NCBI GenBank assembly: GCA_015694865.1
Contig: GCA_015694865.1_3933.1
DNA: 25,324 nucleotides
Origin: a phage
Reading direction: 5' to 3' (one strand)
A program made the translations under genes and the position numbers. The notes below the pieces were generated by a model that saw only the letters and a list, made by a program, of their open reading frames with translations, made no database searches and was not told where the DNA came from. This document shows, in pieces, positions 5,143 to 17,029 of this stretch. The stretch's first letter is position 1; each line of letters starts with the position of its first letter.

Positions 5143-6489
5143 TTATTTGATAAGAGATTTTAGAGCATTCTGGAGAGCCAGTTTGCGTTGTTCAGCGGTG
5201 TCTTCGGAAGCATTCTTAGCTGGTTCTTTTTCTTCTTCAACCAAATCAGCTTCGCCGTCATTACCCATTTCTTCCATAGCATTAGAATGTTCAAGAACAG
5301 CACCAGCAGTTTCTTTCAGCTTGGTAATTTCTGATTCTTTTTCTTCCATTGCAGAAGCATGGGACGCGATAGTTTCATTAAGTTTCTGGTTAGCACCTTC
5401 CATAGCATTCATAAACAGAACGCTCAGAGGGTTATCAAGACCAGCACCTAAAATAGTCGTTGCAGCTTCTTTTGCATCAAACCCAAAAGCTTCAGCAGAA
5501 GCAGAAATCTTATTAGTCAAATCTGACAAAGCAGCTTCCTGTTCTTTAGCTTTCATTTGAGCAACCTGAAGACGCAAAGCTTCTAGTTCTTGCTTTTCTT
5601 GTTCAGTCATTTCTTCACCTGAATTGTTAACGTTTAAACTTACAGGAGCCTCTTCAGAACCTTGTAAGTAATTTAAGAAATCATCTTGAGACATGATTGA
5701 GTTAATTAAACCAAGTTCAAGAGCTTCCTGAGCAGAATAAACATTCGCCTCAGTATTCTTTACAGCTTCTTCAGAGAGTTTACGAGATTCGGCTACAAAA
5801 CCTGTAAAGGTTGCGTAGGTATCATTAATTCTCTTTTGAAGTCTTTCTTTGCTTTCTTCTGAGAGTGCTTGGAATGGTGAACCCATCCCTTTAAATTCAC
5901 CAGCTTTAATGACGTTAATTGTTACGCCATTCTTTTCAAATGCCTTAGTTAATTCCTGATGAACCATAATTACACCAATAGAACCAACATCTGCATCTGG
6001 TGATGCAATAATTTCTTCAGCAGAAGATGCAAGAGCGTATGCAGCGGAACAAGCGAACTCATCTACATAAGCAATAATTTTCTTTTGGCCTCTTGAAGCC
6101 ATAATGTGACGTGCTAATTCAAAGCAACCTGAAGCTTCACCACCACCAGAATCGATGTGCAGAACAATAGTCTTGATTGACTCATCTGCTAAAGCTTCGT
6201 CAAAGCCTCTACGCAAACCTTCATAAGAGCTTAATCCACCTGTACACATTGCATCAATGAATGTCATACGATGGGTTAAACCACCCATAATAGGGATAAT
6301 AGCAATGTCATCTTTTACTTTTAAAAGACTTCTTGCTTCACCTTTGGGTTTATCAAAGTTTACTGCTGCTTGGACATCACCCAGCAATCTGTTATTCACA
6401 TAAGTTGCTGCTGAGTGAGCTAATGATTCAGTGGCTAGTAAAGGTTGGTTGAATAATCTATCAGCAAGTCTGAAGATATTCGAACTCAT
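5143..6489 (-). CDS. prohead protease, S49 (SppA/ClpP-like) family, with C-terminal scaffold-like coiled-coil extension
   Basis: 448 aa; S49-type core (…HIDSGGGEASGCFELARHI…IAYVDEFACSAAYALAS…VGSIGVIM…) followed by an E/K/A/Q-rich helical tail. Confidence 0.8.
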   Translation of the reverse strand: MSSNIFRLADRLFNQPLLATESLAHSAATYVNNRLLGDVQAAVNFDKPKGEARSLLKVKDDIAIIPIMGGLTHRMTFIDAMCTGGLSSYEGLRRGFDEALADESIKTIVLHIDSGGGEASGCFELARHIMASRGQKKIIAYVDEFACSAAYALASSAEEIIASPDADVGSIGVIMVHQELTKAFEKNGVTINVIKAGEFKGMGSPFQALSEESKERLQKRINDTYATFTGFVAESRKLSEEAVKNTEANVYSAQEALELGLINSIMSQDDFLNYLQGSEEAPVSLNVNNSGEEMTEQEKQELEALRLQVAQMKAKEQEAALSDLTNKISASAEAFGFDAKEAATTILGAGLDNPLSVLFMNAMEGANQKLNETIASHASAMEEKESEITKLKETAGAVLEHSNAMEEMGNDGEADLVEEEKEPAKNASEDTAEQRKLALQNALKSLIK

Positions 6490-7333: not shown

Positions 7334-8808
7334 TATTTATTTGCCTTATTTGCTGTGCTTGGGTCTTTCGCTGAAGGTGTCTTTGCAGTACCTTCTCCAG
7401 CGGTCTTATAACCATCTCCTGAGCGGCTTTGACTATTTGGAGAAAGCTTTTCAGATACTGGTTGAGACTCATCAGCAGGAGGAAGACCAATATGCTCTCT
7501 AAGCTTGTTAGATAGCTCTTTGTCAACTTCCAAAGCACCTACTGCAACAGTCTTCTGGATATAAGAACCAATTGCTTCAAGGTCTGGAGTTTCGATATCA
7601 TCATATGTGATTTGTACATGTTCTTCATCGTCCCACATATTAAGAGCATAAGTCTGTGCAACTAAATCACGGTTAATTACGTTCTTAATTTGCTTCAGCA
7701 GGATATCTACCGACATTGCTAGTAAGCTTGTCTTAGAATCTGCAAGAGAGAATGAACCATATTTTGACTGACCCATAGCAAGAACATCTGACATAAATGC
7801 CATCATAATCTGCTTGGAATATCTGTCAATAATAGAACCTGTATCGTATGCTTTAGCACCCTGTCTAGAAACTAATGAGAACTCGAAAATATCCTCTTTA
7901 GTATCTGGGTCGATATATCTAGGCCAGATTAAACCTGCTCTATCATTAGCAATCATATCGTTAACAACAGTTTTGCAGTATTGTACGAAAGCTTTCTTTT
8001 CAGGTTCTGCATTTTCATCCAGATAATCTGGTGGTAAACCAATCTTTGGCATACCTACCAAGTCTCTTGAAACACCAACGGCTTCGTACTCTTCAATCTG
8101 AACTTTATACTTCCACGGTACATAGGCATTAAGTAATGGTGAACGACCTTCTGGGTTTCCATATTCATCATCATACTTAAACAGCATGAATTTAGCTCGT
8201 GGAAGTTTTCTTGTTAGTGGCCTTTCTACGAGATTAATTGCTCCAGCAATATGTGAAACATTTCTCAGATTCTGTCTAACACCAGTAACTTTTCTAAAGT
8301 CTTCGTCAAAATACCACTTATCAAGTGTTGATTGGTTTCTGATTGGTAATTTAGCCCATCCAATTAGACCATCATCAAATTTTGACTGGTACTTTCCTTT
8401 TTTACCCTGTCGCTTCTTATAAACTTTCTCGTTAACACAGAACCCATAAGTGCAGAATGACATTACAGAATTAATAAAATCTGCCCAATCATGCTCCATG
8501 TCATCCATTAAAGAATTAAAGAAGTCTGCTCTTTCAAGCATTTTAGGGTCTTGCTCTTTTCCCTTTGGAGGTACGAATCTCCAGTTGACTTTTCTGACAA
8601 ACATCTTAATAATATTTACAGATGCTGCTACAGCAGGGTCACGCATCATTAATTGGAAAGTTTTAATACTTTCAGGGAACCTTAGTGCCTGACGAGGTTC
8701 TTCATAGATTCTTCCATTCTTAACCTTCAGACCCAAAGAACCTACTTCACCCATTCTAAATGGTGGTAAGCTTTCTTGTGTTTCTGTAATATCTGCCATT
8801 CTTCTCAC
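7333..8808 (-). CDS. portal protein
   Basis: 491 aa ORF immediately downstream of the terminase large subunit; size and position typical of portal proteins. Confidence 0.7.
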   Translation of the reverse strand: MRRMADITETQESLPPFRMGEVGSLGLKVKNGRIYEEPRQALRFPESIKTFQLMMRDPAVAASVNIIKMFVRKVNWRFVPPKGKEQDPKMLERADFFNSLMDDMEHDWADFINSVMSFCTYGFCVNEKVYKKRQGKKGKYQSKFDDGLIGWAKLPIRNQSTLDKWYFDEDFRKVTGVRQNLRNVSHIAGAINLVERPLTRKLPRAKFMLFKYDDEYGNPEGRSPLLNAYVPWKYKVQIEEYEAVGVSRDLVGMPKIGLPPDYLDENAEPEKKAFVQYCKTVVNDMIANDRAGLIWPRYIDPDTKEDIFEFSLVSRQGAKAYDTGSIIDRYSKQIMMAFMSDVLAMGQSKYGSFSLADSKTSLLAMSVDILLKQIKNVINRDLVAQTYALNMWDDEEHVQITYDDIETPDLEAIGSYIQKTVAVGALEVDKELSNKLREHIGLPPADESQPVSEKLSPNSQSRSGDGYKTAGEGTAKTPSAKDPSTANKANK

Positions 8809-10861: not shown

Positions 10862-10937
10862 TGGAGAATCCGAAGGGACTCGAACCCTTATAAACCTGTT
10901 TTGCAGACAGGCACATAGCCATTTCTGTCACGGATTC
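10862..10937 (-). tRNA. tRNA-Cys (anticodon GCA)
   Basis: 76 nt on reverse complement; acceptor GAATCCG/CGGATTC, T-arm AAGGG-TTCGAGT-CCCTT, anticodon loop CTGCAAA, CCA encoded. Confidence 0.8.
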
Positions 10938-10941
10938 AAAT

Positions 10942-11034
10942 TGGAGGAAGATACCAGACTTGAACTGGTACACCGATTTCTCAGCTACTGGCAGTTTAGC
11001 AAACTGCTCCCTTACCTTTTAGGGTTAATCTTCC
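10942..11034 (-). tRNA. tRNA-Ser (anticodon GCT), class II long variable arm
   Basis: 93 nt; acceptor GGAAGAT/ATCTTCC, anticodon stem GCAGT/ACTGC with loop TTGCTAA, about 21-nt variable arm, T-arm ACCAG-TTCAAGT-CTGGT, CCA encoded. Confidence 0.75.
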
Positions 11035-11035
11035 A

Positions 11036-11770
11036 TTATTTCTGTAATGCGTTCTTCATTTCTGGTGTTGCAATAGTGTCAATTACACCAGTTTTACAGG
11101 CATCATCAAACCAGTCTGGTAAGATACCTGCTAAGAACCCATTGATATTCGTTTTAAGGTACTCTGCAATAAGGGCAGCTTCTTCTTCAATCATCTGCAC
11201 AACTTCATCTGCATAAGCTGTAATCTTTGAGATACCTTCATTAATCTTACTGACAGCTTGGTTAGCTAAATCAGAAACAGTATCAAGACCCTTGTCAATA
11301 GCGTCTTGTAAGTCACTTAATACATCGTTAACACTCTCTAGTGTACTGTTAATCGTATCAATAGCTTTTTGACCATATTCTGTAGCAACACCCATAATAC
11401 CACTGAACGGTGTACAACCAACTTGTTCTCCTGCTGCACCCATAACATTGGAATATCCCTTTGCTACCTGCATACGTGATGAAAACTCATCAATAGATTT
11501 TTGACCGTAGTCTGTCAGGGTCTTAGTAGTTGCTGTAGTGCTTGTAAGGCTTGTTGTAAAGCTGTTTAGAAGGATTGTTGTAAGTCCAGCAGCAACAAGT
11601 TTCTCCTGCATTGTAGGGTCTGTTACAGAACTAATAGAGCTTACAAGTGATGTAGAAGCAGCTACGGTTCCACCGAGAACTGCTGCACCAGTAATAAGTG
11701 GGTTAGAAAACCCTTTACCGGTTTTTAAGAGATTAAAAATCTCCTTACCTTGTTCTGTCATCTCTTTCAT
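11036..11770 (-). CDS. hypothetical protein with N-terminal hydrophobic segment and long helical C-terminal region, embedded in the tRNA array
   Basis: ORF 11036..11833 trimmed to the internal Met at 11770 (AAAGG RBS) because the longer start would overlap tRNA-Phe; hydrophobic stretch LITGAAVLGGTVAASTSLVSSI. Confidence 0.5.
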   Translation of the reverse strand: MKEMTEQGKEIFNLLKTGKGFSNPLITGAAVLGGTVAASTSLVSSISSVTDPTMQEKLVAAGLTTILLNSFTTSLTSTTATTKTLTDYGQKSIDEFSSRMQVAKGYSNVMGAAGEQVGCTPFSGIMGVATEYGQKAIDTINSTLESVNDVLSDLQDAIDKGLDTVSDLANQAVSKINEGISKITAYADEVVQMIEEEAALIAEYLKTNINGFLAGILPDWFDDACKTGVIDTIATPEMKNALQK

Positions 11771-11786
11771 TAAGCACCTTTGAAAT

Positions 11787-11863
11787 TGGTAGTCCAGTGG
11801 GATTTGAACCCTCTTCTCATGTTTTTCAGACACGCGCTTTAACCATATAAGCTACTTGGACTA
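11787..11863 (-). tRNA. tRNA-Phe (anticodon GAA), acceptor/D-arm register ambiguous
   Basis: T-arm GAGGG-TTCAAAT-CCCAC, anticodon stem CGTGT/ACATG with loop CTGAAAA; the acceptor can pair as TAGTCCA/TGGACTA or a shifted register, so the ends are +/-2 nt. Confidence 0.55.
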
Positions 11864-11868
11864 TAAAT

Positions 11869-11944
11869 TGGGGTGACCTACGGGATTTGAACCCGTATAG
11901 ACCATGTTCACAGCATGGGTCATTACCATTTATGATAAGGCCAC
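11869..11944 (-). tRNA. tRNA-His (anticodon GTG)
   Basis: 76 nt; acceptor GTGGCCT/AGGTCAC, D-stem TCAT/ATGA, anticodon stem CCATG/CATGG with loop CTGTGAA, T-arm ACGGG-TTCAAAT-CCCGT, discriminator C, CCA encoded. Confidence 0.8.
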
Positions 11945-11975
11945 ATTTAAGGACTCTCGTAAGAACCCTTAGAAG

Positions 11976-12051
11976 TGGCAGCGGCATAAGGATTTGAACC
12001 TTAATAGGACAGCTTCAGAGACTGTTGCATTGCCAGTTATGCTATACCGCT
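11976..12051 (-). tRNA. tRNA-Gln (anticodon CTG)
   Basis: 76 nt; acceptor AGCGGTA/TGCCGCT, D-stem GCAT/ATGC, anticodon loop CTCTGAA, T-arm TAAGG-TTCAAAT-CCTTA, CCA encoded. Confidence 0.75.
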
Positions 12052-12056
12052 AAATT

Positions 12057-12135
12057 TGGTACTCCATATCGGATTCGAACCGATACATAACACAGATTTT
12101 AAGTCTGGCCTCTCTGCCAATTGGAGTAATGGAGC
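12057..12135 (-). tRNA. tRNA with Leu-type anticodon TAA but short variable region (atypical; isotype uncertain)
   Basis: 79 nt; acceptor GCTCCAT/ATGGAGT, T-arm ATCGG-TTCGAAT-CCGAT, best anticodon loop CTTAAAA on a 4-bp stem; no class II long arm. Confidence 0.5.
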
Positions 12136-12137
12136 AT

Positions 12138-12213
12138 TGGTGGGGGATGTTGGAATTGAACCAACTTCTTCGATTTCAAAGACCGAGGTTTTAACCTTGT
12201 AAACTAATCCCCT
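12138..12213 (-). tRNA. tRNA-Gln (anticodon TTG)
   Basis: 76 nt; T-arm GTTGG-TTCAATT-CCAAC, D-stem GTTT/AAAC, anticodon stem TCGGT/ATCGA with loop CTTTGAA; position 1-72 is an A-C mismatch. Confidence 0.7.
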
Positions 12214-12221
12214 TTAAATCT

Positions 12222-12779
12222 TTACTTTCTCAGTGGATGAATAAAGAATGCCAACATAACTCTTTCCCTTGAGAATGCTCTTTCTTCTGGGACAACACTT
12301 TTTAGTTTCCATCCAATATAAATTCTCCAGTAAAACTGTTTACCAAAGACTTTAATTGATGGGATAAAAGCGAATAATCCCCAAGCATTACTGTTCCACA
12401 TTAGGAGATAACCTGTCTGATTATCTTCAGGGTCAGAACTTACGTTGATATTACCTTTCCACTTAGTAACATCTTTTACATCTCTTCCTAATACATGGTA
12501 AGAGAAGTTATAGGCTTTGTTTCTCCAGAGCCATCCGACTCTCTGCATGTAGACACCCAGCTTACCAATCTTTCTAATCTTAGCCCATCGTTCGATATGA
12601 CCTTCGTCACCATCAATTGGGTTGTCATATGTCTCCATCCATCTAAATCCGAAAGGTAAGTGGCCTTTCTTCTCACTGTAAAATGGAACTACGAAAGGTG
12701 CTAAGATAACTGCTAAGGTTGCTGCTAATGGTTCTAGCAAAGCTAGGAAAATCCATGAAGCATATTTTAAATATCTCAT
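12222..12779 (-). CDS. hypothetical membrane-anchored protein embedded in the tRNA array
   Basis: 185 aa ORF; N-terminal hydrophobic helix (ASWIFLALLEPLAATLAVILAPFVVPF), Trp-rich soluble part; coupled to the upstream small ORF. Confidence 0.5.
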   Translation of the reverse strand: MRYLKYASWIFLALLEPLAATLAVILAPFVVPFYSEKKGHLPFGFRWMETYDNPIDGDEGHIERWAKIRKIGKLGVYMQRVGWLWRNKAYNFSYHVLGRDVKDVTKWKGNINVSSDPEDNQTGYLLMWNSNAWGLFAFIPSIKVFGKQFYWRIYIGWKLKSVVPEERAFSRERVMLAFFIHPLRK

Positions 12780-13018
12780 CGTCTAATCCTTGTAAGGAGA
12801 TAAATGTTATTATTCGTTTCTAAACCTTCTGGTAAAACTGTCTCAAAAATAACACTCTTTAGCTGTCTACCACCAAAACAATCACGTATAAATCTTTCTA
12901 CTCTAGCGGGGTCACATAAGTACCCTACTTTTAAGAAAATGTGGTGTTCAACACCAATGACCCTGACAAACTCAATATTCTCACAGTTTTCATGTTCAAC
13001 TACTGTTAATGTTTGCAT
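12776..13018 (-). CDS. hypothetical small protein (coupled to 12222..12779)
   Basis: 80 aa ORF; its stop overlaps the start of the downstream ORF (ATGA). Confidence 0.4.
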   Translation of the reverse strand: MQTLTVVEHENCENIEFVRVIGVEHHIFLKVGYLCDPARVERFIRDCFGGRQLKSVIFETVLPEGLETNNNIYLLTRIRR

Positions 13019-13035
13019 AGTATCACCTTTTTATC

Positions 13036-13111
13036 TGGCGCAGGATAAGGGATTCGAACCCCTATTAACAGCTTCGTAGACTGTTGCTCTATCCATTTGA
13101 ACTAATCCTGC
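13036..13111 (-). tRNA. tRNA-Arg (anticodon ACG)
   Basis: 76 nt; acceptor GCAGGAT/ATCCTGC, D-stem GTTC/GAGC, anticodon loop CTACGAA, T-arm AGGGG-TTCGAAT-CCCTT, CCA encoded. Confidence 0.8.
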
Positions 13112-13116
13112 AAAAT

Positions 13117-13194
13117 TGGTGTTCCAAGACGGATTCGAACCGTCACTAATACAAGGTTTGAGCTTACATCCTCTGCCAATTGGGATACTGGAAC
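13117..13194 (-). tRNA. tRNA with Leu-type anticodon CAA but short variable region (atypical; isotype uncertain)
   Basis: 78 nt; acceptor GTTCCAG/TTGGAAC, T-arm GACGG-TTCGAAT-CCGTC, D-loop AATTGGCAGAG shared with the 12057..12135 gene, anticodon loop CTCAAAC. Confidence 0.5.
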
Positions 13195-13195
13195 A

Positions 13196-13269
13196 TGGTA
13201 CTCACTAAAGGACTTGAACCTTTTCTTCATCTTGTAAGGGTGATGTTTTACCATATAAACTAAGCGAGT
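13196..13269 (-). tRNA. tRNA-Val (anticodon TAC)
   Basis: 74 nt; acceptor ACTCGCT/AGTGAGT, D-stem GTTT/AAAC, anticodon loop CTTACAA, T-arm AAAGG-TTCAAGT-CCTTT, CCA encoded; short variable loop. Confidence 0.65.
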
Positions 13270-13364
13270 GTGAAAGAGGTCTGAAGTTGTGCCGCTAACT
13301 CAACTCCGTGGAATTTGTTACGGTCTTCAGTTGACACCAGCGGTCTTTCACTTGACCTCTGAAT

Positions 13365-13441
13365 TGGTGCTGCTCACAGGACTCGAACCCGCATTTCCAT
13401 CCTTACAAGGGATGTGTAATAGCCAATTATACGAAAGCAGC
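13365..13441 (-). tRNA. tRNA-Thr (anticodon TGT)
   Basis: 77 nt; acceptor GCTGCTT/GAGCAGC, anticodon stem CATCC/GGATG with loop CTTGTAA, T-arm GCGGG-TTCGAGT-CCTGT, CCA encoded. Confidence 0.75.
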
Positions 13442-13448
13442 ATTAATT

Positions 13449-13524
13449 TGGAGCATCCAGAGGGAATCGAACCCTCAACCTCAGTTTGGAAGACTGTAAT
13501 TTTCCCGTTTAAACTATGGATGCA
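13449..13524 (-). tRNA. tRNA-Gly (anticodon TCC)
   Basis: 76 nt; acceptor GCATCCA/TGGATGC, anticodon loop CTTCCAA, T-arm GAGGG-TTCGATT-CCCTC, CCA encoded. Confidence 0.7.
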
Positions 13525-13529
13525 CTAAT

Positions 13530-13605
13530 TGGTGGAGAAGCAGGGAATTGAACCCTGTACTTAAGTTTGCAAAACTTATGTTTTAACCATGTAAACTACA
13601 TCCCC
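13530..13605 (-). tRNA. tRNA-Ala (anticodon TGC)
   Basis: 76 nt; G3-U70 wobble pair in the acceptor stem (Ala identity element), anticodon stem TAAGT/ACTTA with loop TTTGCAA, T-arm CAGGG-TTCAATT-CCCTG, CCA encoded. Confidence 0.75.
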
Positions 13606-13611
13606 AATGTA

Positions 13612-13687
13612 TGGTACAGGTGGAGGGAATTGAACCCATCGTCTTACTGATTAAGAGTCAGCCGCATAACCATTTTGCTACACCTGC
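13612..13687 (-). tRNA. tRNA-Lys (anticodon CTT)
   Basis: 76 nt; acceptor GCAGGTG/CACCTGT, anticodon stem GCTGA/TCAGT with loop CTCTTAA, T-loop TTCAATT, CCA encoded. Confidence 0.7.
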
Positions 13688-13694
13688 ATTAATT

Positions 13695-13772
13695 TGGTAG
13701 GAGACAAGGGATTCGAACCCTCAAACACCAACTTCTAAGGATGGTAGGTTTACCAATTACCGTCAATCTCCC
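13695..13772 (-). tRNA. tRNA with Leu-type anticodon TAG but short variable region (atypical; isotype uncertain)
   Basis: 78 nt; acceptor GGGAGAT/GTCTCCT, T-arm GAGGG-TTCGAAT-CCCTT, anticodon loop CTTAGAA on stem CCATC/GTTGG; D-arm poorly paired. Confidence 0.45.
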
Positions 13773-14028
13773 ATTAAATCTTTTTAGAGAACTTCTAAGA
13801 ACCTAAGCAACAAGGTTCCACAACAAGCTGTAATAACCTTAGAAGCCCTCTAAAAAGACCTAAAAAGGTCTTTGCATAGTCTTGTTTAATCCGGTGACTA
13901 GAACCTTTGGAGAGCTTGATATTATCTCTTCTCCGTGACACCTACTAGGTGCTTTACTGTGCTTGTACGACAATACACGAGGGATACCAAAGCAACATCC
14001 GAATGAAGCTTGGCTTTAAACCTTATTA

Positions 14029-14118
14029 GGCGGTAAGTAAAGGAGTCGAACCCTCACCGTATCTCTACAGTGGCAACTGTTTTCAAGACAGTTTGGCTAC
14101 CATTAGCCGCTACCTACC
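14029..14118 (-). tRNA. tRNA-Ser (anticodon TGA), class II
   Basis: About 88 nt; acceptor GGTAGGT/ACTTACC, D-stem GGC/GCC, anticodon stem ACTGT/ACAGT with loop CTTGAAA, long variable arm, T-loop TTCGACT; only CC of CCA encoded. Confidence 0.7.
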
Positions 14119-14131
14119 CCTAATAAGACTT

Positions 14132-14214
14132 TGGCATGGGACGGAGGAGTTGAACCCCTTTGAAACGGTTTTGGAGGCCGTTGCTCATGCCTTAGAGTCT
14201 TAACATCGTCCCAT
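14132..14214 (-). tRNA. tRNA-Trp-like (anticodon CCA) with abnormally long D-region; possibly a tRNA-like ncRNA
   Basis: 83 nt; perfect 7-bp acceptor ATGGGAC/GTCCCAT, T-loop TTCAACT, anticodon arm ACGGC-CTCCAAA-ACCGT, but about 16 nt between the D-stem strands. Confidence 0.5.
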
Positions 14215-14356
14215 ATTATAATTCGAAGCTTACCGTATTATCTCAACACTGTAAAGCCCCTTCTCAGATTATTTACATGTTCTGGAAAACATGAGATACA
14301 GACCACCTCCCTACAGGAAGACCCGCTTAGGTCGTCTAAGTAATCTGCTAACTAAT

Positions 14357-14433
14357 TGGCACACCCTACAGGATTCGAACCTGTAACTAACGATTTAGAA
14401 GACCGTTGCTCTATCCAATTGAACTAAGGGTGC
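14357..14433 (-). tRNA. tRNA-Arg (anticodon TCT)
   Basis: 77 nt; acceptor GCACCCT/AGGGTGT, D-stem GTTC/GAGC, anticodon stem ACGGT/ATCGT with loop CTTCTAA, T-arm ACAGG-TTCGAAT-CCTGT, CCA encoded. Confidence 0.8.
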
Positions 14434-14636
14434 ATTAATCTTTAAAGACTCTCTTAGAAAGCCCTTAAAGATGCCCACCTTATTAATCATACCGTGGGCT
14501 AGTACGCCAAATTCTTTGATGAGGGATTGGAAGACCTCACTGGTGTTTAGCCTATCAAGCTACTGCCAGAAAAACATTGTCGTTTGCATTTATTTTAAAT
14601 TTGCAAAATAGACGCTACGCAACGAAAACTAAGGTT

Positions 14637-14665
14637 ACTATAAAGTAGTCACATCTCAATGTCAA
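14637..14665 (-). promoter_or_regulatory. sigma70-like promoter on minus strand (TTGACA-17 bp-TATAGT)
   Basis: Plus-strand tgtcaa at 14660-14665 and actata at 14637-14642 give, on the minus strand, -35 TTGACA, a 17-nt spacer and -10 TATAGT, pointing at tRNA-Arg(TCT) and downstream tRNAs. Confidence 0.55.
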
Positions 14666-14680
14666 CAACTTTATTGAAAT

Positions 14681-14756
14681 TGGTACTGGTAGGTGGAATC
14701 GAACCACCGATGTTCCCTTATCAGGGGAGTGTTATAACCTTCTTAACTATACCAGC
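14681..14756 (-). tRNA. tRNA-Ile (anticodon GAT)
   Basis: 76 nt; acceptor GCTGGTA/TACCAGT, D-stem GTTA/TAAC, anticodon loop CTGATAA, T-arm GGTGG-TTCGATT-CCACC, CCA encoded. Confidence 0.75.
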
Positions 14757-14757
14757 T

Positions 14758-14834
14758 TGGAGGTTCAGATGGGATTCGAACCCATCGCCTGTCAGATTAA
14801 AAGTCTGCCGCATCACCATTCTGCTACACTTCCA
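14758..14834 (-). tRNA. tRNA-Lys-like (anticodon TTT) with poorly paired acceptor stem (possible pseudo-tRNA)
   Basis: Paralogous in sequence to the 13612..13687 tRNA-Lys; good T-arm ATGGG-TTCGAAT-CCCAT and anticodon arm GCAGA-CTTTTAA-TCTGA, but acceptor strands GGAAGTG vs CTGAACC pair at only 3 of 7 positions. Confidence 0.45.
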
Positions 14835-14837
14835 TTA

Positions 14838-14981
14838 AATTATCTTTGTAGATAAGCTACCCAGACTTGCTTAATGTCTGTAGCGATGTGCCTTTTTGGG
14901 TTTAAATCTAGAATTTACCCTTTCACCCTTTGTGGTCGCATACTCACAGGTAAGCTTAATAACTTATCTACAAAGATAATT
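14838..14981. repeat. 19-bp perfect inverted repeat (14838-14856 / 14963-14981) flanking a 106-bp non-coding segment
   Basis: aattatctttgtagataag at 14838-14856 is the exact reverse complement of cttatctacaaagataatt at 14963-14981. Confidence 0.7.
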
Positions 14982-15030
14982 ACCAGACCGTTGTTTATCA
15001 TCTTAAGTGCTACCATTACACCAACTCGAC

Positions 15031-15080
15031 ATCTGCCGAGTGAAGGAATCGAACCTTCGCCTTTTCTTTACCGGAGAAAT
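15031..15080 (-). ncRNA. tRNA-like fragment (T-arm plus 3' acceptor strand without a pairing 5' strand)
   Basis: Reverse complement gives TTTCT-CCGGTAA-AGAAA, then GAAGG-TTCGATT-CCTTC-ACTCGGC; no complementary 5' acceptor strand or recognisable D-arm within about 80 nt upstream. Confidence 0.35.
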
Positions 15081-15120
15081 AGATTGTTTAAGTTTTGCTG
15101 AATACGGTCTTCTGCAAAAT

Positions 15121-15197
15121 TGGAGGCGGGTGCAGGAGTCGAACCTACCGATACCATGCTAATGAGACATGTGAGACGCCCTTTCTCTATACCCGCA
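15121..15197 (-). tRNA. tRNA-Met (anticodon CAT; elongator, initiator or Ile2 not distinguishable)
   Basis: 77 nt; T-arm GTAGG-TTCGACT-CCTGC, anticodon stem CATGT/GCATG with loop CTCATTA, acceptor ACCCGCC with a 1-72 T-C mismatch in the best register, CCA encoded. Confidence 0.6.
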
Positions 15198-15287
15198 ATT
15201 CTCAATGACCAGACCAAATATCTTCTTTGTCCGATTTCGTGTCAGATGAGTAGATTAAGTTTGCTGTAATTGGTCTTCTGTCAAAAC

Positions 15288-15365
15288 TGGCGTTCCAGAA
15301 GGGATTTGAACCCTCAGATATCCACTTTGAAAGAGTGGTGACTTTACCATTTTGTCTACTGGAAC
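15288..15365 (-). tRNA. tRNA-Glu (anticodon TTC)
   Basis: 78 nt; acceptor GTTCCAG/CTGGAAC, anticodon stem CCACT/AGTGG with loop CTTTCAA, T-arm GAGGG-TTCAAAT-CCCTT, CCA encoded. Confidence 0.7.
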
Positions 15366-15375
15366 ATTAATTTGT

Positions 15376-15449
15376 TCTCTGTTGGAGGACTTGAACCTCC
15401 GGCCTTACCGCCCCAAACGGAACGCTCTACCAAGCTGAGCTAAACAGAG
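15376..15449 (-). tRNA. tRNA-Pro (anticodon TGG)
   Basis: 74 nt without CCA; C1-G72 pair, D-arm TAGCTCAGCTTGGTAGAGC, anticodon loop TTTGGGG with G37, T-arm GGAGG-TTCAAGT-CCTCC. Confidence 0.75.
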
Positions 15450-15567
15450 ATAAACTTTTCAAACTCTATGTAACCACTTTAACATTATTTTTTAGTGGTT
15501 GTCAAGAACTTTTTTAAAATATTTTTCAGTATCTTAGAAAAGCTCTCATTTCGTTTCTATGTAGAAC

Positions 15568-15614: not shown

Positions 15615-17029
15615 TTACCAGATGTAACGGTCAATCATTACTGCTTTGAGCATTACACTGATTGGGTCAAACTTCTCACCACCAAGCAGAGCTTTTAAAG
15701 TAGCTGGAGAAAAACCAGATACCATTGCTACACCGTTATCCTTAACAGACACTTCGCAAGTACCATTACGGTTTGCTAAGTACCAGAATACCAGTTGAGG
15801 CATTTCGTATCCAGCTTTTTTGTACTTACTCTGAATTGCTTCAAAGTTTGTACGACCGTTAGCTCCATCAACCTGATTGAACTCCATATCGGAGAAGATG
15901 ATAAGCTTACTTGCATGTCTTTCTTAGTCAAGTTGTTTCTCTTACCTACCTCAAGAATCCGGTCAAAAGCTGCTTGTAAGTTAGTTGAGCCATATTCAAC
16001 ATGTCGCATCACCTGACGATGACGGTTTCGTAAATCACCACTCAGTTCGATGAAGTGAGGGTTTGTTGAATAAACCATTAACTCATCCTTAAAGCAACCT
16101 GTATTGCGTTCTGCTACATACAAGGCAAGGGATACACCAATATCAAGGGCAGTGATTGAACCAAGATTCACCCAAGACATTGAGCTTGAAACATCAGTCA
16201 TACACAAGATGTTTTCACCTTCTGCCATCCAGTTTGGTAGTGCTTTCCACTGCTCATTGGCAACATCTGCATTACCATGCTTGATAGACTTAATCACATC
16301 GTATGGGTAAACAGCACCAGCGTTAATCTTAGTCTCACCTTTTGATAAGGACTCAATGTAAGCTTTGTAACGTTCTCCATCCTTACGGTTAAACAGTTTT
16401 TGGTAACGTGCAGCAGCAAGTGAAGGAGTCTTACTGTAGTCAATCTTACCAAACTCATTAGCAGAGATTTTTTGCTCAACTGTATCAGATAGTGCAGACA
16501 ACAGTGTGCGGTACTCTTTCTCACTCAAGTTGGCAAACTTGCAGAAACGTTTTACAAACTGCTTATGACGTGGTTTGACTCGTGGTAACCACTTAGCCGC
16601 CAAACCTGCTGTTGCAGGTTCTAGTAATGCTGCTTCTAGATGTTTGAAGGCATCTGTCTCGAAACGAGTACCTACGAAGATTTTGAAGTCATCAAAACGA
16701 CCAAGTTCTGCAATCTTATCCATAATGCGAAGAACCTGCGTAGGCTCTAAAACTTTGTCTTCAATCGCTTGAAGTAAAACAGTTCTGAAGGCTTTACGCT
16801 CACCCATACCTTCTCGTACATCTCGCATATGAAGCAAAATACGAACTGCAACATCAACATCCTCACGCAAAGCTTTGTAGAACAGGTCTGGTAAGATTTC
16901 TACGTTGCTACGGCTTGAACCAGCAGCTTTGTAAAAGTCTACAAGAGCAGACATTGATGAAGTATGGTTTACAGCACCATTTTCAGTTCGACCTGCATGA
17001 AGGTGCGCATGTTTAAATAATTCGCTCAT
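15615..17029 (-). CDS. Ro60-like vWA-domain protein, interrupted by an apparent frameshift near 15885-15926
   Basis: Two overlapping minus-strand ORFs (15776..17029 and 15615..15887) in different frames; MIDAS-like TDVSSSM motif in the first; the second frame reads ...HASKLIIFSDMEFNQ..., typical of the end of a vWA fold. Ro60-like (DUF2828-type) assignment is from memory. Confidence 0.6.

Follow-up and report, generated by a model that had tools for sequence, protein, structure and literature searches.

The DNA stretch analysed here, referred to as the window, comprises 25,324 nucleotides (nt) from a phage (GenBank assembly GCA_015694865.1, contig GCA_015694865.1_3933.1). It carries on its minus strand, from 10862 to 15450, a tRNA cluster in which 22 tRNA genes called by ARAGORN are interleaved with small open reading frames. 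Three of these genes have leucine anticodons but no long variable arm. All three lie on the minus strand, end in an encoded CCA and were recognised by ARAGORN and by the Rfam model RF00005 (gathering score 29), which served as two independent programs for gene structure and anticodon register. They are tRNA-Leu(UAA) at 12057..12135 (79 nt; Rfam 47.5 bits), tRNA-Leu(CAA) at 13117..13194 (78 nt; 40.8 bits) and tRNA-Leu(UAG), a gene of the T5/BF23 type, at 13695..13772 (78 nt; 40.0 bits). Each score lies above the threshold of 29, which places all three genes in the tRNA family. In the Rfam alignments the anticodon loops read CUUAAAA, CUCAAAC and CUUAGAA, respectively, and ARAGORN uses the identical register, so each gene holds a Leu anticodon (NAG or YAA) in a 7-nt loop on which both programs agree. 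The initial annotation of this DNA had given the same coordinates, sizes of 78–79 nt and anticodons TAA, CAA and TAG, all of which were reproduced. In public records of related phages, the depositors likewise label the three genes tRNA-Leu, at 78–79 nt.

The ARAGORN cloverleaves have in common a 7-base-pair (bp) acceptor stem, U8, a 5-bp anticodon stem, a canonical T arm (GGUUCGAAUCC), A73 and the encoded CCA. With the anticodon stem counted as 5 bp, the variable region measures 7 nt (GUUAUGU) in the UAA gene, 6 nt (AUUAGU) in the CAA gene and 5 nt (UGUUU) in the UAG gene; the 6–7 nt first reported was correct for the former two and slightly overstated for the third. In none of the three ARAGORN folds can a variable-arm helix form, and the region of more than 10 nt with a stem-loop that marks class II is absent. 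All three genes show the type I arrangement, namely a Leu anticodon on a Leu-type body whose variable loop has some 5 nt and forms no helix, the loops of the UAA and CAA genes being slightly longer than the 5 nt typical of short-arm relatives.

The D arms set the UAG gene apart. In the UAA and CAA genes ARAGORN draws a 3-bp D stem and an 11-nt D loop, CAAUUGGCAGA, and the D-loop string that had been noticed in two of the three genes, AATTGGCAGAG, is indeed found in both. The UAA gene further has G1.U72, U8, a C13.A22 in its D stem, a variable loop ending in U48, the T loop UUCGAAU and A73. In the CAA gene the D arm is UCC / CAAUUGGCAGA / GGA, the variable loop again ends in U48, position 73 is A, and the anticodon stem contains two G.U pairs. 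The UAG gene has G1.U72, U8, the D loop AAUUGGUAAA with one extra base, the variable loop UGUUU and A73; its acceptor and D-arm register in Rfam is offset by one nt from that of ARAGORN, with the anticodon unchanged.

The cluster also supplies class II controls. Its tRNA-Ser(gct) (93 nt) and tRNA-Ser(tga) (90 nt) both have a genuine variable stem; the short arm is therefore a trait of Leu alone and not a software artefact. The initial annotation had left a choice between wrong anticodon-arm registers and structurally unusual tRNAs. Covariance-model folding was used to look for other anticodons or a class II fold that had been missed, and neither was found. Because the registers are right and no class II fold is hidden, the second alternative holds: the genes are unusual by the textbook, but not among phages. 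They are correctly called tRNA-Leu, and they have no long extra arm.

Conservation, lineages and covariation

The whole cluster matches 302 phage records at 80–99% identity, nearly all of them Felix O1-like myoviruses, and its layout is collinear with Felixounavirus and Mooglevirus records. The window phage is itself Felix O1-like, a member of the subfamily Ounavirinae. These relatives (Ounavirinae) infect Escherichia, Salmonella, Shigella and Citrobacter, and also Erwinia. Of 264 phage records that match the UAA gene, 216 do so at 99% identity or more. For the CAA gene, 246 of 298 phage records fall at 95–99% identity and none at 99% or above; at its nucleotide 29 the window has U29.G43, where phages Sf14, FSL SP-012 and ASO1A have C29-G43. 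The UAG gene is at least 99% identical in 71 records, among them Mooglevirus and some Felixounavirus records at 100%, and is represented by other alleles elsewhere. In the Mooglevirus phage Sf14 the UAA and CAA genes each differ by 1 nt from those of the window, and the UAG gene is a different, likewise short-armed allele. A Felix O1-type tRNA-Leu(UAA) is also matched at 100% by positions 62026–62103 of GenBank GU169904 (Staphylococcus phage SA1), a record that is probably chimeric or mislabelled.

Two sub-lineages could be distinguished. A T5-type group, with 75–86% identity, contains the window UAG gene, the FSL SP-012 allele, tRNA-Leu L1 of BF23 and a Seunavirus gene; the window UAG gene is 81% identical to BF23 L1 and 80% to the Seunavirus gene. 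A second group, with 63–74% identity and the CAAUUGGCAGA-type D loop, contains the window UAA and CAA genes, the Sf14 UAG allele and actinobacterial genes. The window genes are homologous to other type I members, at 80–86% to T5-type genes and at 67–74% to the Sf14 and actinobacterial genes. Compared with the E. coli isoacceptors of the same anticodon they show only 52–60% identity, and a search of 5,426 complete E. coli genomes found nothing that matches the UAA gene. Given this distance from the host isoacceptors and the lack of an E. coli match, the genes are not recent arm-deleted copies of host genes, and that origin was discarded.

The nearest named relative of the UAG gene is tRNA-Leu L1 of BF23/T5 (Tequintavirus; GenBank AJ604530), which reads CUA and measures 77 nt with CCA. 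Both have a 3-bp D stem, A73, the anticodon UAG and a U.U mismatch in the anticodon stem. BF23 L1 has an 11-nt D loop, GAAUUGGCAUA, and a 5-nt variable loop, GUUUU; it differs from the window gene in belonging to a siphovirus, of another virus family than the Felix O1-like myoviruses, in having a regular D stem (AUG/CAU) and no extra base, and in bearing an annotation of function, as an amber-suppressor derivative, which the window genes do not have. The window UAA and CAA genes, members of the other sub-lineage, share 54–62% identity with it. The U.U mismatch, at the second pair from the anticodon loop, is common to the window UAG gene, BF23 (7997–8073) and Seunavirus (6001–6077), and is thus conserved across three virus groups.

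The Leu(UAG) slot of the Ounavirinae is occupied by at least three different short-arm alleles: that of the window and Mooglevirus Mordin, that of FSL SP-012 and ASO1A (86% identical, every change in the anticodon stem being compensated), and that of Sf14 (55% identical and of the other sub-lineage). This pattern suggests cassette-like replacement, which may have proceeded by recombination between phage tRNA clusters.

For the analysis of covariation we aligned 78 diverse short-arm sequences, including the three from the window and BF23 L1. At each of the 20 stem pairs both sides have changed in compensation, the covariation score reaches 1.08 as against 0.25 for shuffles, and RNAalifold, given no structure, returns the identical cloverleaf. 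Paired cells amount to 98.9%, compared with 35–46% when the 3' partners are slid, a percentage that is inflated by the prior choice of the sequences as ARAGORN calls of canonical layout. In the anticodon region the homologues align without gaps. Two Felixounavirus UAG alleles illustrate the constraint, as their anticodon stems differ at every position (CCAUC/GUUGG and UCUCG/CGAGA) and pairing is kept in both.

Distribution among phages and bacteria

Short tRNA-Leu genes are found well outside the Felix O1-like group. The form occurs in T5/BF23 and Seunavirus phages, in Aeromonas phage Akh-2 (at 1046–1119 of the retrieved stretch), in Xanthomonas phage X1, where short-arm and long-arm Leu genes stand side by side, in Enterococcus phage EFDG1, with a 74-nt Leu gene beside an 84-nt one, and in Erwinia Ounavirinae, with three short Leu genes of 79–80 nt. 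A scan of IMG/VR for a Leu signature of D loop, anticodon and T loop at short spacing yielded at least 120 contigs. From the contigs listed, together with reference phage loci, we collected 169 distinct tRNA-Leu genes called by ARAGORN with a variable region of 8 nt or less, and in 141 of these that region is exactly 5 nt. Features that had not been part of the search pattern are nearly invariant in this set, with A73 in 168 of 169, U48 in 166 and U8 in 160.

The combination of A73 and U48 separates tRNA-Leu from the other tRNAs on the same contigs. Of the short-arm Leu genes, whose variable region by definition never exceeds 8 nt, 98% have it, as do 100% of the long-arm Leu genes, whose variable region by definition always does; among other tRNAs, 97% of which have a variable region of 8 nt or less, the figure is only 19%. 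On these contigs, which had been selected for Leu, the two features occur together in 2% of tRNA-Ser and 31% of tRNA-Tyr genes, and a variable region of 8 nt or less in 1 of 133 and 1 of 52, respectively.

A less biased sample was drawn from viral tRNA clusters by a generic signature of T arm and CCA, which gave 103 new loci with 484 tRNAs. Among bystander Leu genes 12 of 36 were short-armed (12 short, 24 long), and among all Leu genes there were 18 short and 29 long; no short form was seen among 35 tRNA-Ser and 11 tRNA-Tyr genes. We therefore put the short-armed share of phage tRNA-Leu at roughly one third; since the sample is small and not dereplicated, anything from a fifth to a half is plausible. 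The initial annotation had taken phage tRNA-Leu to be normally class II, a view that does not agree with this share or with the presence of the form in T5/BF23 and many other phages.

The same Leu signature was applied to one genome per prokaryotic species, and what follows covers the matches listed. Nearly all of them are tRNA-Leu genes with variable loops of 4–7 nt. Most are tRNA-Leu(UAA) genes that stand alone in Actinomycetota and whose D arm, CC-CAAUUGGCAGA-GG, has the D loop of the window UAA and CAA genes; the others stand in arrays of 10–26 tRNAs in Acidobacteriota, cyanobacteria and mycobacteria. Among the Actinomycetota with a solitary short-arm gene, mostly of anticodon UAA, are Nocardia, Mycobacterium, Gordonia, Rhodococcus, Arthrobacter, Rothia and Bifidobacterium. 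The actinobacterial genes are 67–70% identical to the window UAA and CAA genes and differ from the phage genes in being chromosomal and high in G+C. The literature that we found has only one such cellular case, that of Streptomyces, and the range seen here is wider.

A literature search for short-arm tRNA-Leu in phages returned no description in the searchable literature, which is no proof of absence, and the 2025 paper on the tRNAs of Sf14 never mentions the variable arm. Annotation pipelines sometimes label short-arm Leu genes 'Pseudo' or 'OTHER': the homologue in the T5-like Yersinia phage phiR2-01 (NC_019919) is recorded as 'tRNA-Pseudo-TAG' and the Akh-2 gene as 'Pseudo-CAA'. Such labels are probably wrong, given that the stems covary across short-arm Leu genes. 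Short-arm tRNA-Leu is an existing and widespread kind, common and conserved in phages and some bacteria, and the window genes are largely ordinary members of it that need no special explanation as tRNA-Leu. As a whole, it appears to be a large, coherent and under-described class.

Probable leucylation and decoding, and competing explanations

We consider it likely that the three genes encode working phage type I tRNA-Leu species, which the host's leucyl-tRNA synthetase (LeuRS) would charge and which would decode UUA, UUG and CUA. For E. coli LeuRS the described determinants are A73, U8:A14, A15-U48, G18G19, A20a and contacts of the D and T loops (PMC9976931; introduction of PMC6614811). Neither the long arm nor the anticodon is required, and arm-less variants stay active (PMC9976931, PMC6614811), so the earlier statement that the long arm is an identity element for LeuRS does not apply to an enzyme of the E. 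coli type (PMC9976931). All the listed determinants except 47n are legible in the three window sequences. An A directly precedes the encoded CCA in each gene, which gives A73; the D loop AAUUGG(C/U)A, U8, the terminal U of the variable loop and the T loop UUCGAAU provide U8:A14, A15-U48, G18G19, A20a and U54, U55, C56 and A58.

A comparison with E. coli K-12 (leuZ, leuX, leuW, leuQPV and leuU) revealed that the phage genes retain the D arm of class II tRNA-Leu. In the phage genes 3 bp make up its stem, position 13.22 is unpaired and the loop reads NAAUUGG(C/U)A(G/A)A, the E. coli loop being GAAU(U/C)GGUAGA; the retention is clean in the UAA and CAA genes and irregular in the UAG gene. Class II tRNA-Leu of E. 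coli and phage T4 thus shares with the phage genes the 3-bp D stem, this loop, A73 and U48, and the E. coli genes also include isoacceptors with G1.U72 and the anticodons UAA, CAA and UAG. They differ in being 85–87 nt long (87 nt in T4) with a variable region of 13–15 nt that forms a stem-loop.

Judged by these elements, each gene would be a bacterial tRNA-Leu body whose variable arm is reduced to 5–7 unpaired nt. The cluster would be transcribed and processed, with CCA already encoded, into mature short-arm tRNAs, and host LeuRS would add leucine by way of A73 and a core of tertiary contacts (U8:A14, A15-U48, G18G19 and A20a against the T loop), features that should need neither a long arm nor the anticodon. 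The tRNAs would then supply decoding of UUA and UUG (UAA), of UUG (CAA), and of CUA and possibly CUG (UAG). The sequence data establish gene structure, conservation, covariation, the presence of the identity elements and a wide distribution; the charging by host LeuRS and the decoding role we infer. In the 25 longest open reading frames of the window TTA makes up 23.7% of Leu codons, TTG 15.1% and CTA 11.9%, with CTG at only 13.2%; the phage is AT-rich and makes heavy use of the codons read by the three tRNAs. According to the Sf14 paper, TTA and CTA are also commoner in that phage than in its host.

Arm-less tRNA-Leu has been met with before, in engineered and in natural form. Engineered E. 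coli tRNA-Leu without the arm is active with E. coli LeuRS, given A73 and the D/T-loop contacts (summarised in PMC9976931). The phage genes have the same architecture as these variants, but are natural and not laboratory constructs derived from the host. Such variants were reportedly described by Asahara (1993 and 1998), Tocchini-Valentini (2000) and Larkin (2002). Animal mitochondrial tRNA-Leu also lacks the long arm and has its identity on A73 and A14 (PMC9976931), but it is a reduced, floppy structure with a LeuRS of its own, whereas in the phage genes the D/T elbow is fully canonical. Streptomyces coelicolor naturally has a type I tRNA-Leu(CAA), with a variable loop of 5 nt, which coexists there with type II under a single LeuRS that ignores A73 and uses a specialised leucine-specific domain (PMC6614811).

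The restriction of the short form to Leu is in line with what the synthetases need. LeuRS does not require the arm, which would be why its loss is tolerated in tRNA-Leu, and the same reasoning would explain why Ser and Tyr retain theirs. The bacterial synthetases SerRS and TyrRS use the variable arm. Loss of the arm in Leu alone, and essentially never in Ser or Tyr, fits these different needs.

Isotype scoring was informative to a varying degree. In the Sf14 paper the tRNAscan-SE isotype models place Leu on top for Leu_TAA (60.2), Leu_CAA (49.1) and Leu_TAG (67.4), scores of which the first two concern genes 1 nt from those of the window and the third another allele. The three thereby belong to a minority whose anticodon agrees with the best isotype model, 13–14 of the 26 phage tRNAs scoring best with a non-cognate one. 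We also built our own isotype profile hidden Markov models, with the anticodon masked and the variable region removed and without an Arg model; the Leu profile was made solely from long-arm genes that had not been chosen by the Leu pattern. This method is noisy, naming about 13 of the 22 window tRNAs correctly, and among 183 short-arm Leu genes of viruses it gave 109 their highest score with the long-arm Leu profile. Its results lend weak support to the Leu isotype.

Several points weigh against the interpretation as host-charged tRNA-Leu. Our own profiles put Leu on top for the UAG gene and marginally for the CAA gene, but Tyr for the UAA gene, with the noise just described. The UAG gene is irregular, its D stem containing a C.C mismatch or adopting an alternative register and its anticodon stem a U.U mismatch, and the pre-selection of aligned sequences noted above has to be kept in mind. 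The BF23 record, by stating that L1 with its anticodon changed to CUA is an 'effective amber suppressor', shows function in translation and gives leucylation its one indirect support, but it names no inserted amino acid. The most direct objection comes from the type I tRNA-Leu(CAA) that S. coelicolor naturally possesses: E. coli LeuRS failed to leucylate it, and the enzyme has been called specific for type II (PMC6614811). This is the one natural type I substrate on which that enzyme has been tried directly, and its variable loop reads A44 C45 A46 G47 C48, with C48 in place of U48. It follows that this tRNA has no A15-U48 pair, which E. coli LeuRS reportedly needs. The difference between C48 and the U48 of the phage genes, which 98% of them and all three in the window have, would be a plausible way of reconciling the failed charging with leucylation of the phage tRNAs. 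The type II-only description accordingly rests on one Streptomyces substrate with C48, and the tRNAs of T5, BF23 and Felix O1, which keep U48, predict that E. coli LeuRS can charge natural type I substrates.

Of the competing explanations, the one that survives best holds that the short arm is itself an adaptation, by which the tRNA evades some host factor, for instance a tRNA-targeting defence nuclease, that recognises class II tRNA-Leu, with charging by LeuRS preserved. It adds to the interpretation as host-charged tRNA-Leu and does not replace it. About one third of phage Leu genes are short-armed, as against no similar gene in the 5,426 complete E. coli genomes, and the UAG slot of Ounavirinae holds three alleles that are unrelated to one another and all short-armed. 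Evasion of anticodon nucleases by sequence changes in phage tRNAs is known (PMC10264068, PMC11464382, PMC11555353). On the other side, T4 keeps an 87-nt class II tRNA-Leu and some phages carry both forms, and in many Actinomycetota the short form is solitary and chromosomal, where defence escape is no obvious driver. We know of no defence system that targets tRNA-Leu through the variable arm, and none that recognises this arm was found. On balance, we regard this adaptive account as unlikely. The same reserve applies to the bolder view that the short arm is a selected phage trait and that E. coli LeuRS routinely charges both types in infected cells, for which the prospects seem slim. If true, it would contradict the published type II-only description of E. 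coli LeuRS and would make short-arm tRNA-Leu a mobile lineage across unrelated phage families, bacterial tRNA arrays and Actinomycetota.

The failure of E. coli LeuRS on one natural type I tRNA-Leu (PMC6614811) could also mean that the window tRNAs are mischarged or remain uncharged, and act as recoding agents, decoys or regulatory RNAs. Our crude profiles did not group the UAA gene with Leu, and the 13–14 of 26 Sf14 tRNAs that score best with a non-cognate model indicate that phage tRNA bodies are generally divergent. However, A73, A15-U48 and the Leu-type D loop are present in 98% of short-arm Leu genes, as in the long-arm ones, and the three Sf14 Leu anticodons agree with the top isotype model. 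Phage-wide recoding from Leu to another residue would harm the phage's own proteins, which are heavy users of these codons, and the BF23 homologue functions in translation as a suppressor. This explanation is accordingly quite improbable.

Decay is harder still to reconcile with the data. If the genes were pseudogenes of class II tRNA-Leu from which the arm had been deleted, near-identity across hundreds of isolates and compensatory change in every stem would not be expected, nor would the two Felixounavirus UAG alleles have kept an anticodon stem paired that has changed throughout; an identity of 52–60% to the E. coli isoacceptors and the lack of an E. coli genome match point the same way. 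The 'tRNA-Pseudo-TAG' label in the T5-like record, the 'Pseudo-CAA' label in Akh-2 and the one clearly broken tRNA of the window, a Lys/Met hybrid described below, speak for decay, but since the stems covary this explanation is effectively refuted and retains hardly any credibility. A wrong anticodon register, with another isotype or a hidden class II fold, is ruled out, since the per-gene Rfam alignments agree with ARAGORN on the same 7-nt loop and anticodon in all three genes and the homologues align gap-free there, the 1-nt shift between the programs in the UAG gene being confined to the acceptor and D arm.

Other features of the tRNA cluster

The tRNA-Lys(ttt) gene that ARAGORN calls at 14758–14830 (minus strand), with its anticodon at position 30, is a deletion hybrid by comparison with phage ASO1A. 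An 82-nt deletion across a shared T-loop sequence, GGGTTCGAA/TCCC, has fused three-quarters of tRNA-Lys(UUU), from its 5' side, with the T-stem and acceptor strand from the 3' side of the tRNA-Met that follows. As the acceptor stem no longer pairs, the hybrid gene is probably dead. At about 14830–15121 the window is without a tRNA-Asn/Tyr/Asp block of about 400 nt that is present in FSL SP-012, ASO1A and Sf14, which leaves the window phage without tRNA-Tyr, the other class II type that its relatives carry.

Proteins with domains of unknown function (DUF) flank or interrupt the cluster. A 417-aa protein with DUF2828 and DUF7788 (vWA-like), encoded at 15776–17029 (minus strand), gave no match in a sequence search of the PDB and is labelled 'RNA-binding protein' in Sf14. 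DUF7217 and DUF7338 proteins are encoded at 11036–11770 and 12222–12779, respectively, both on the minus strand.

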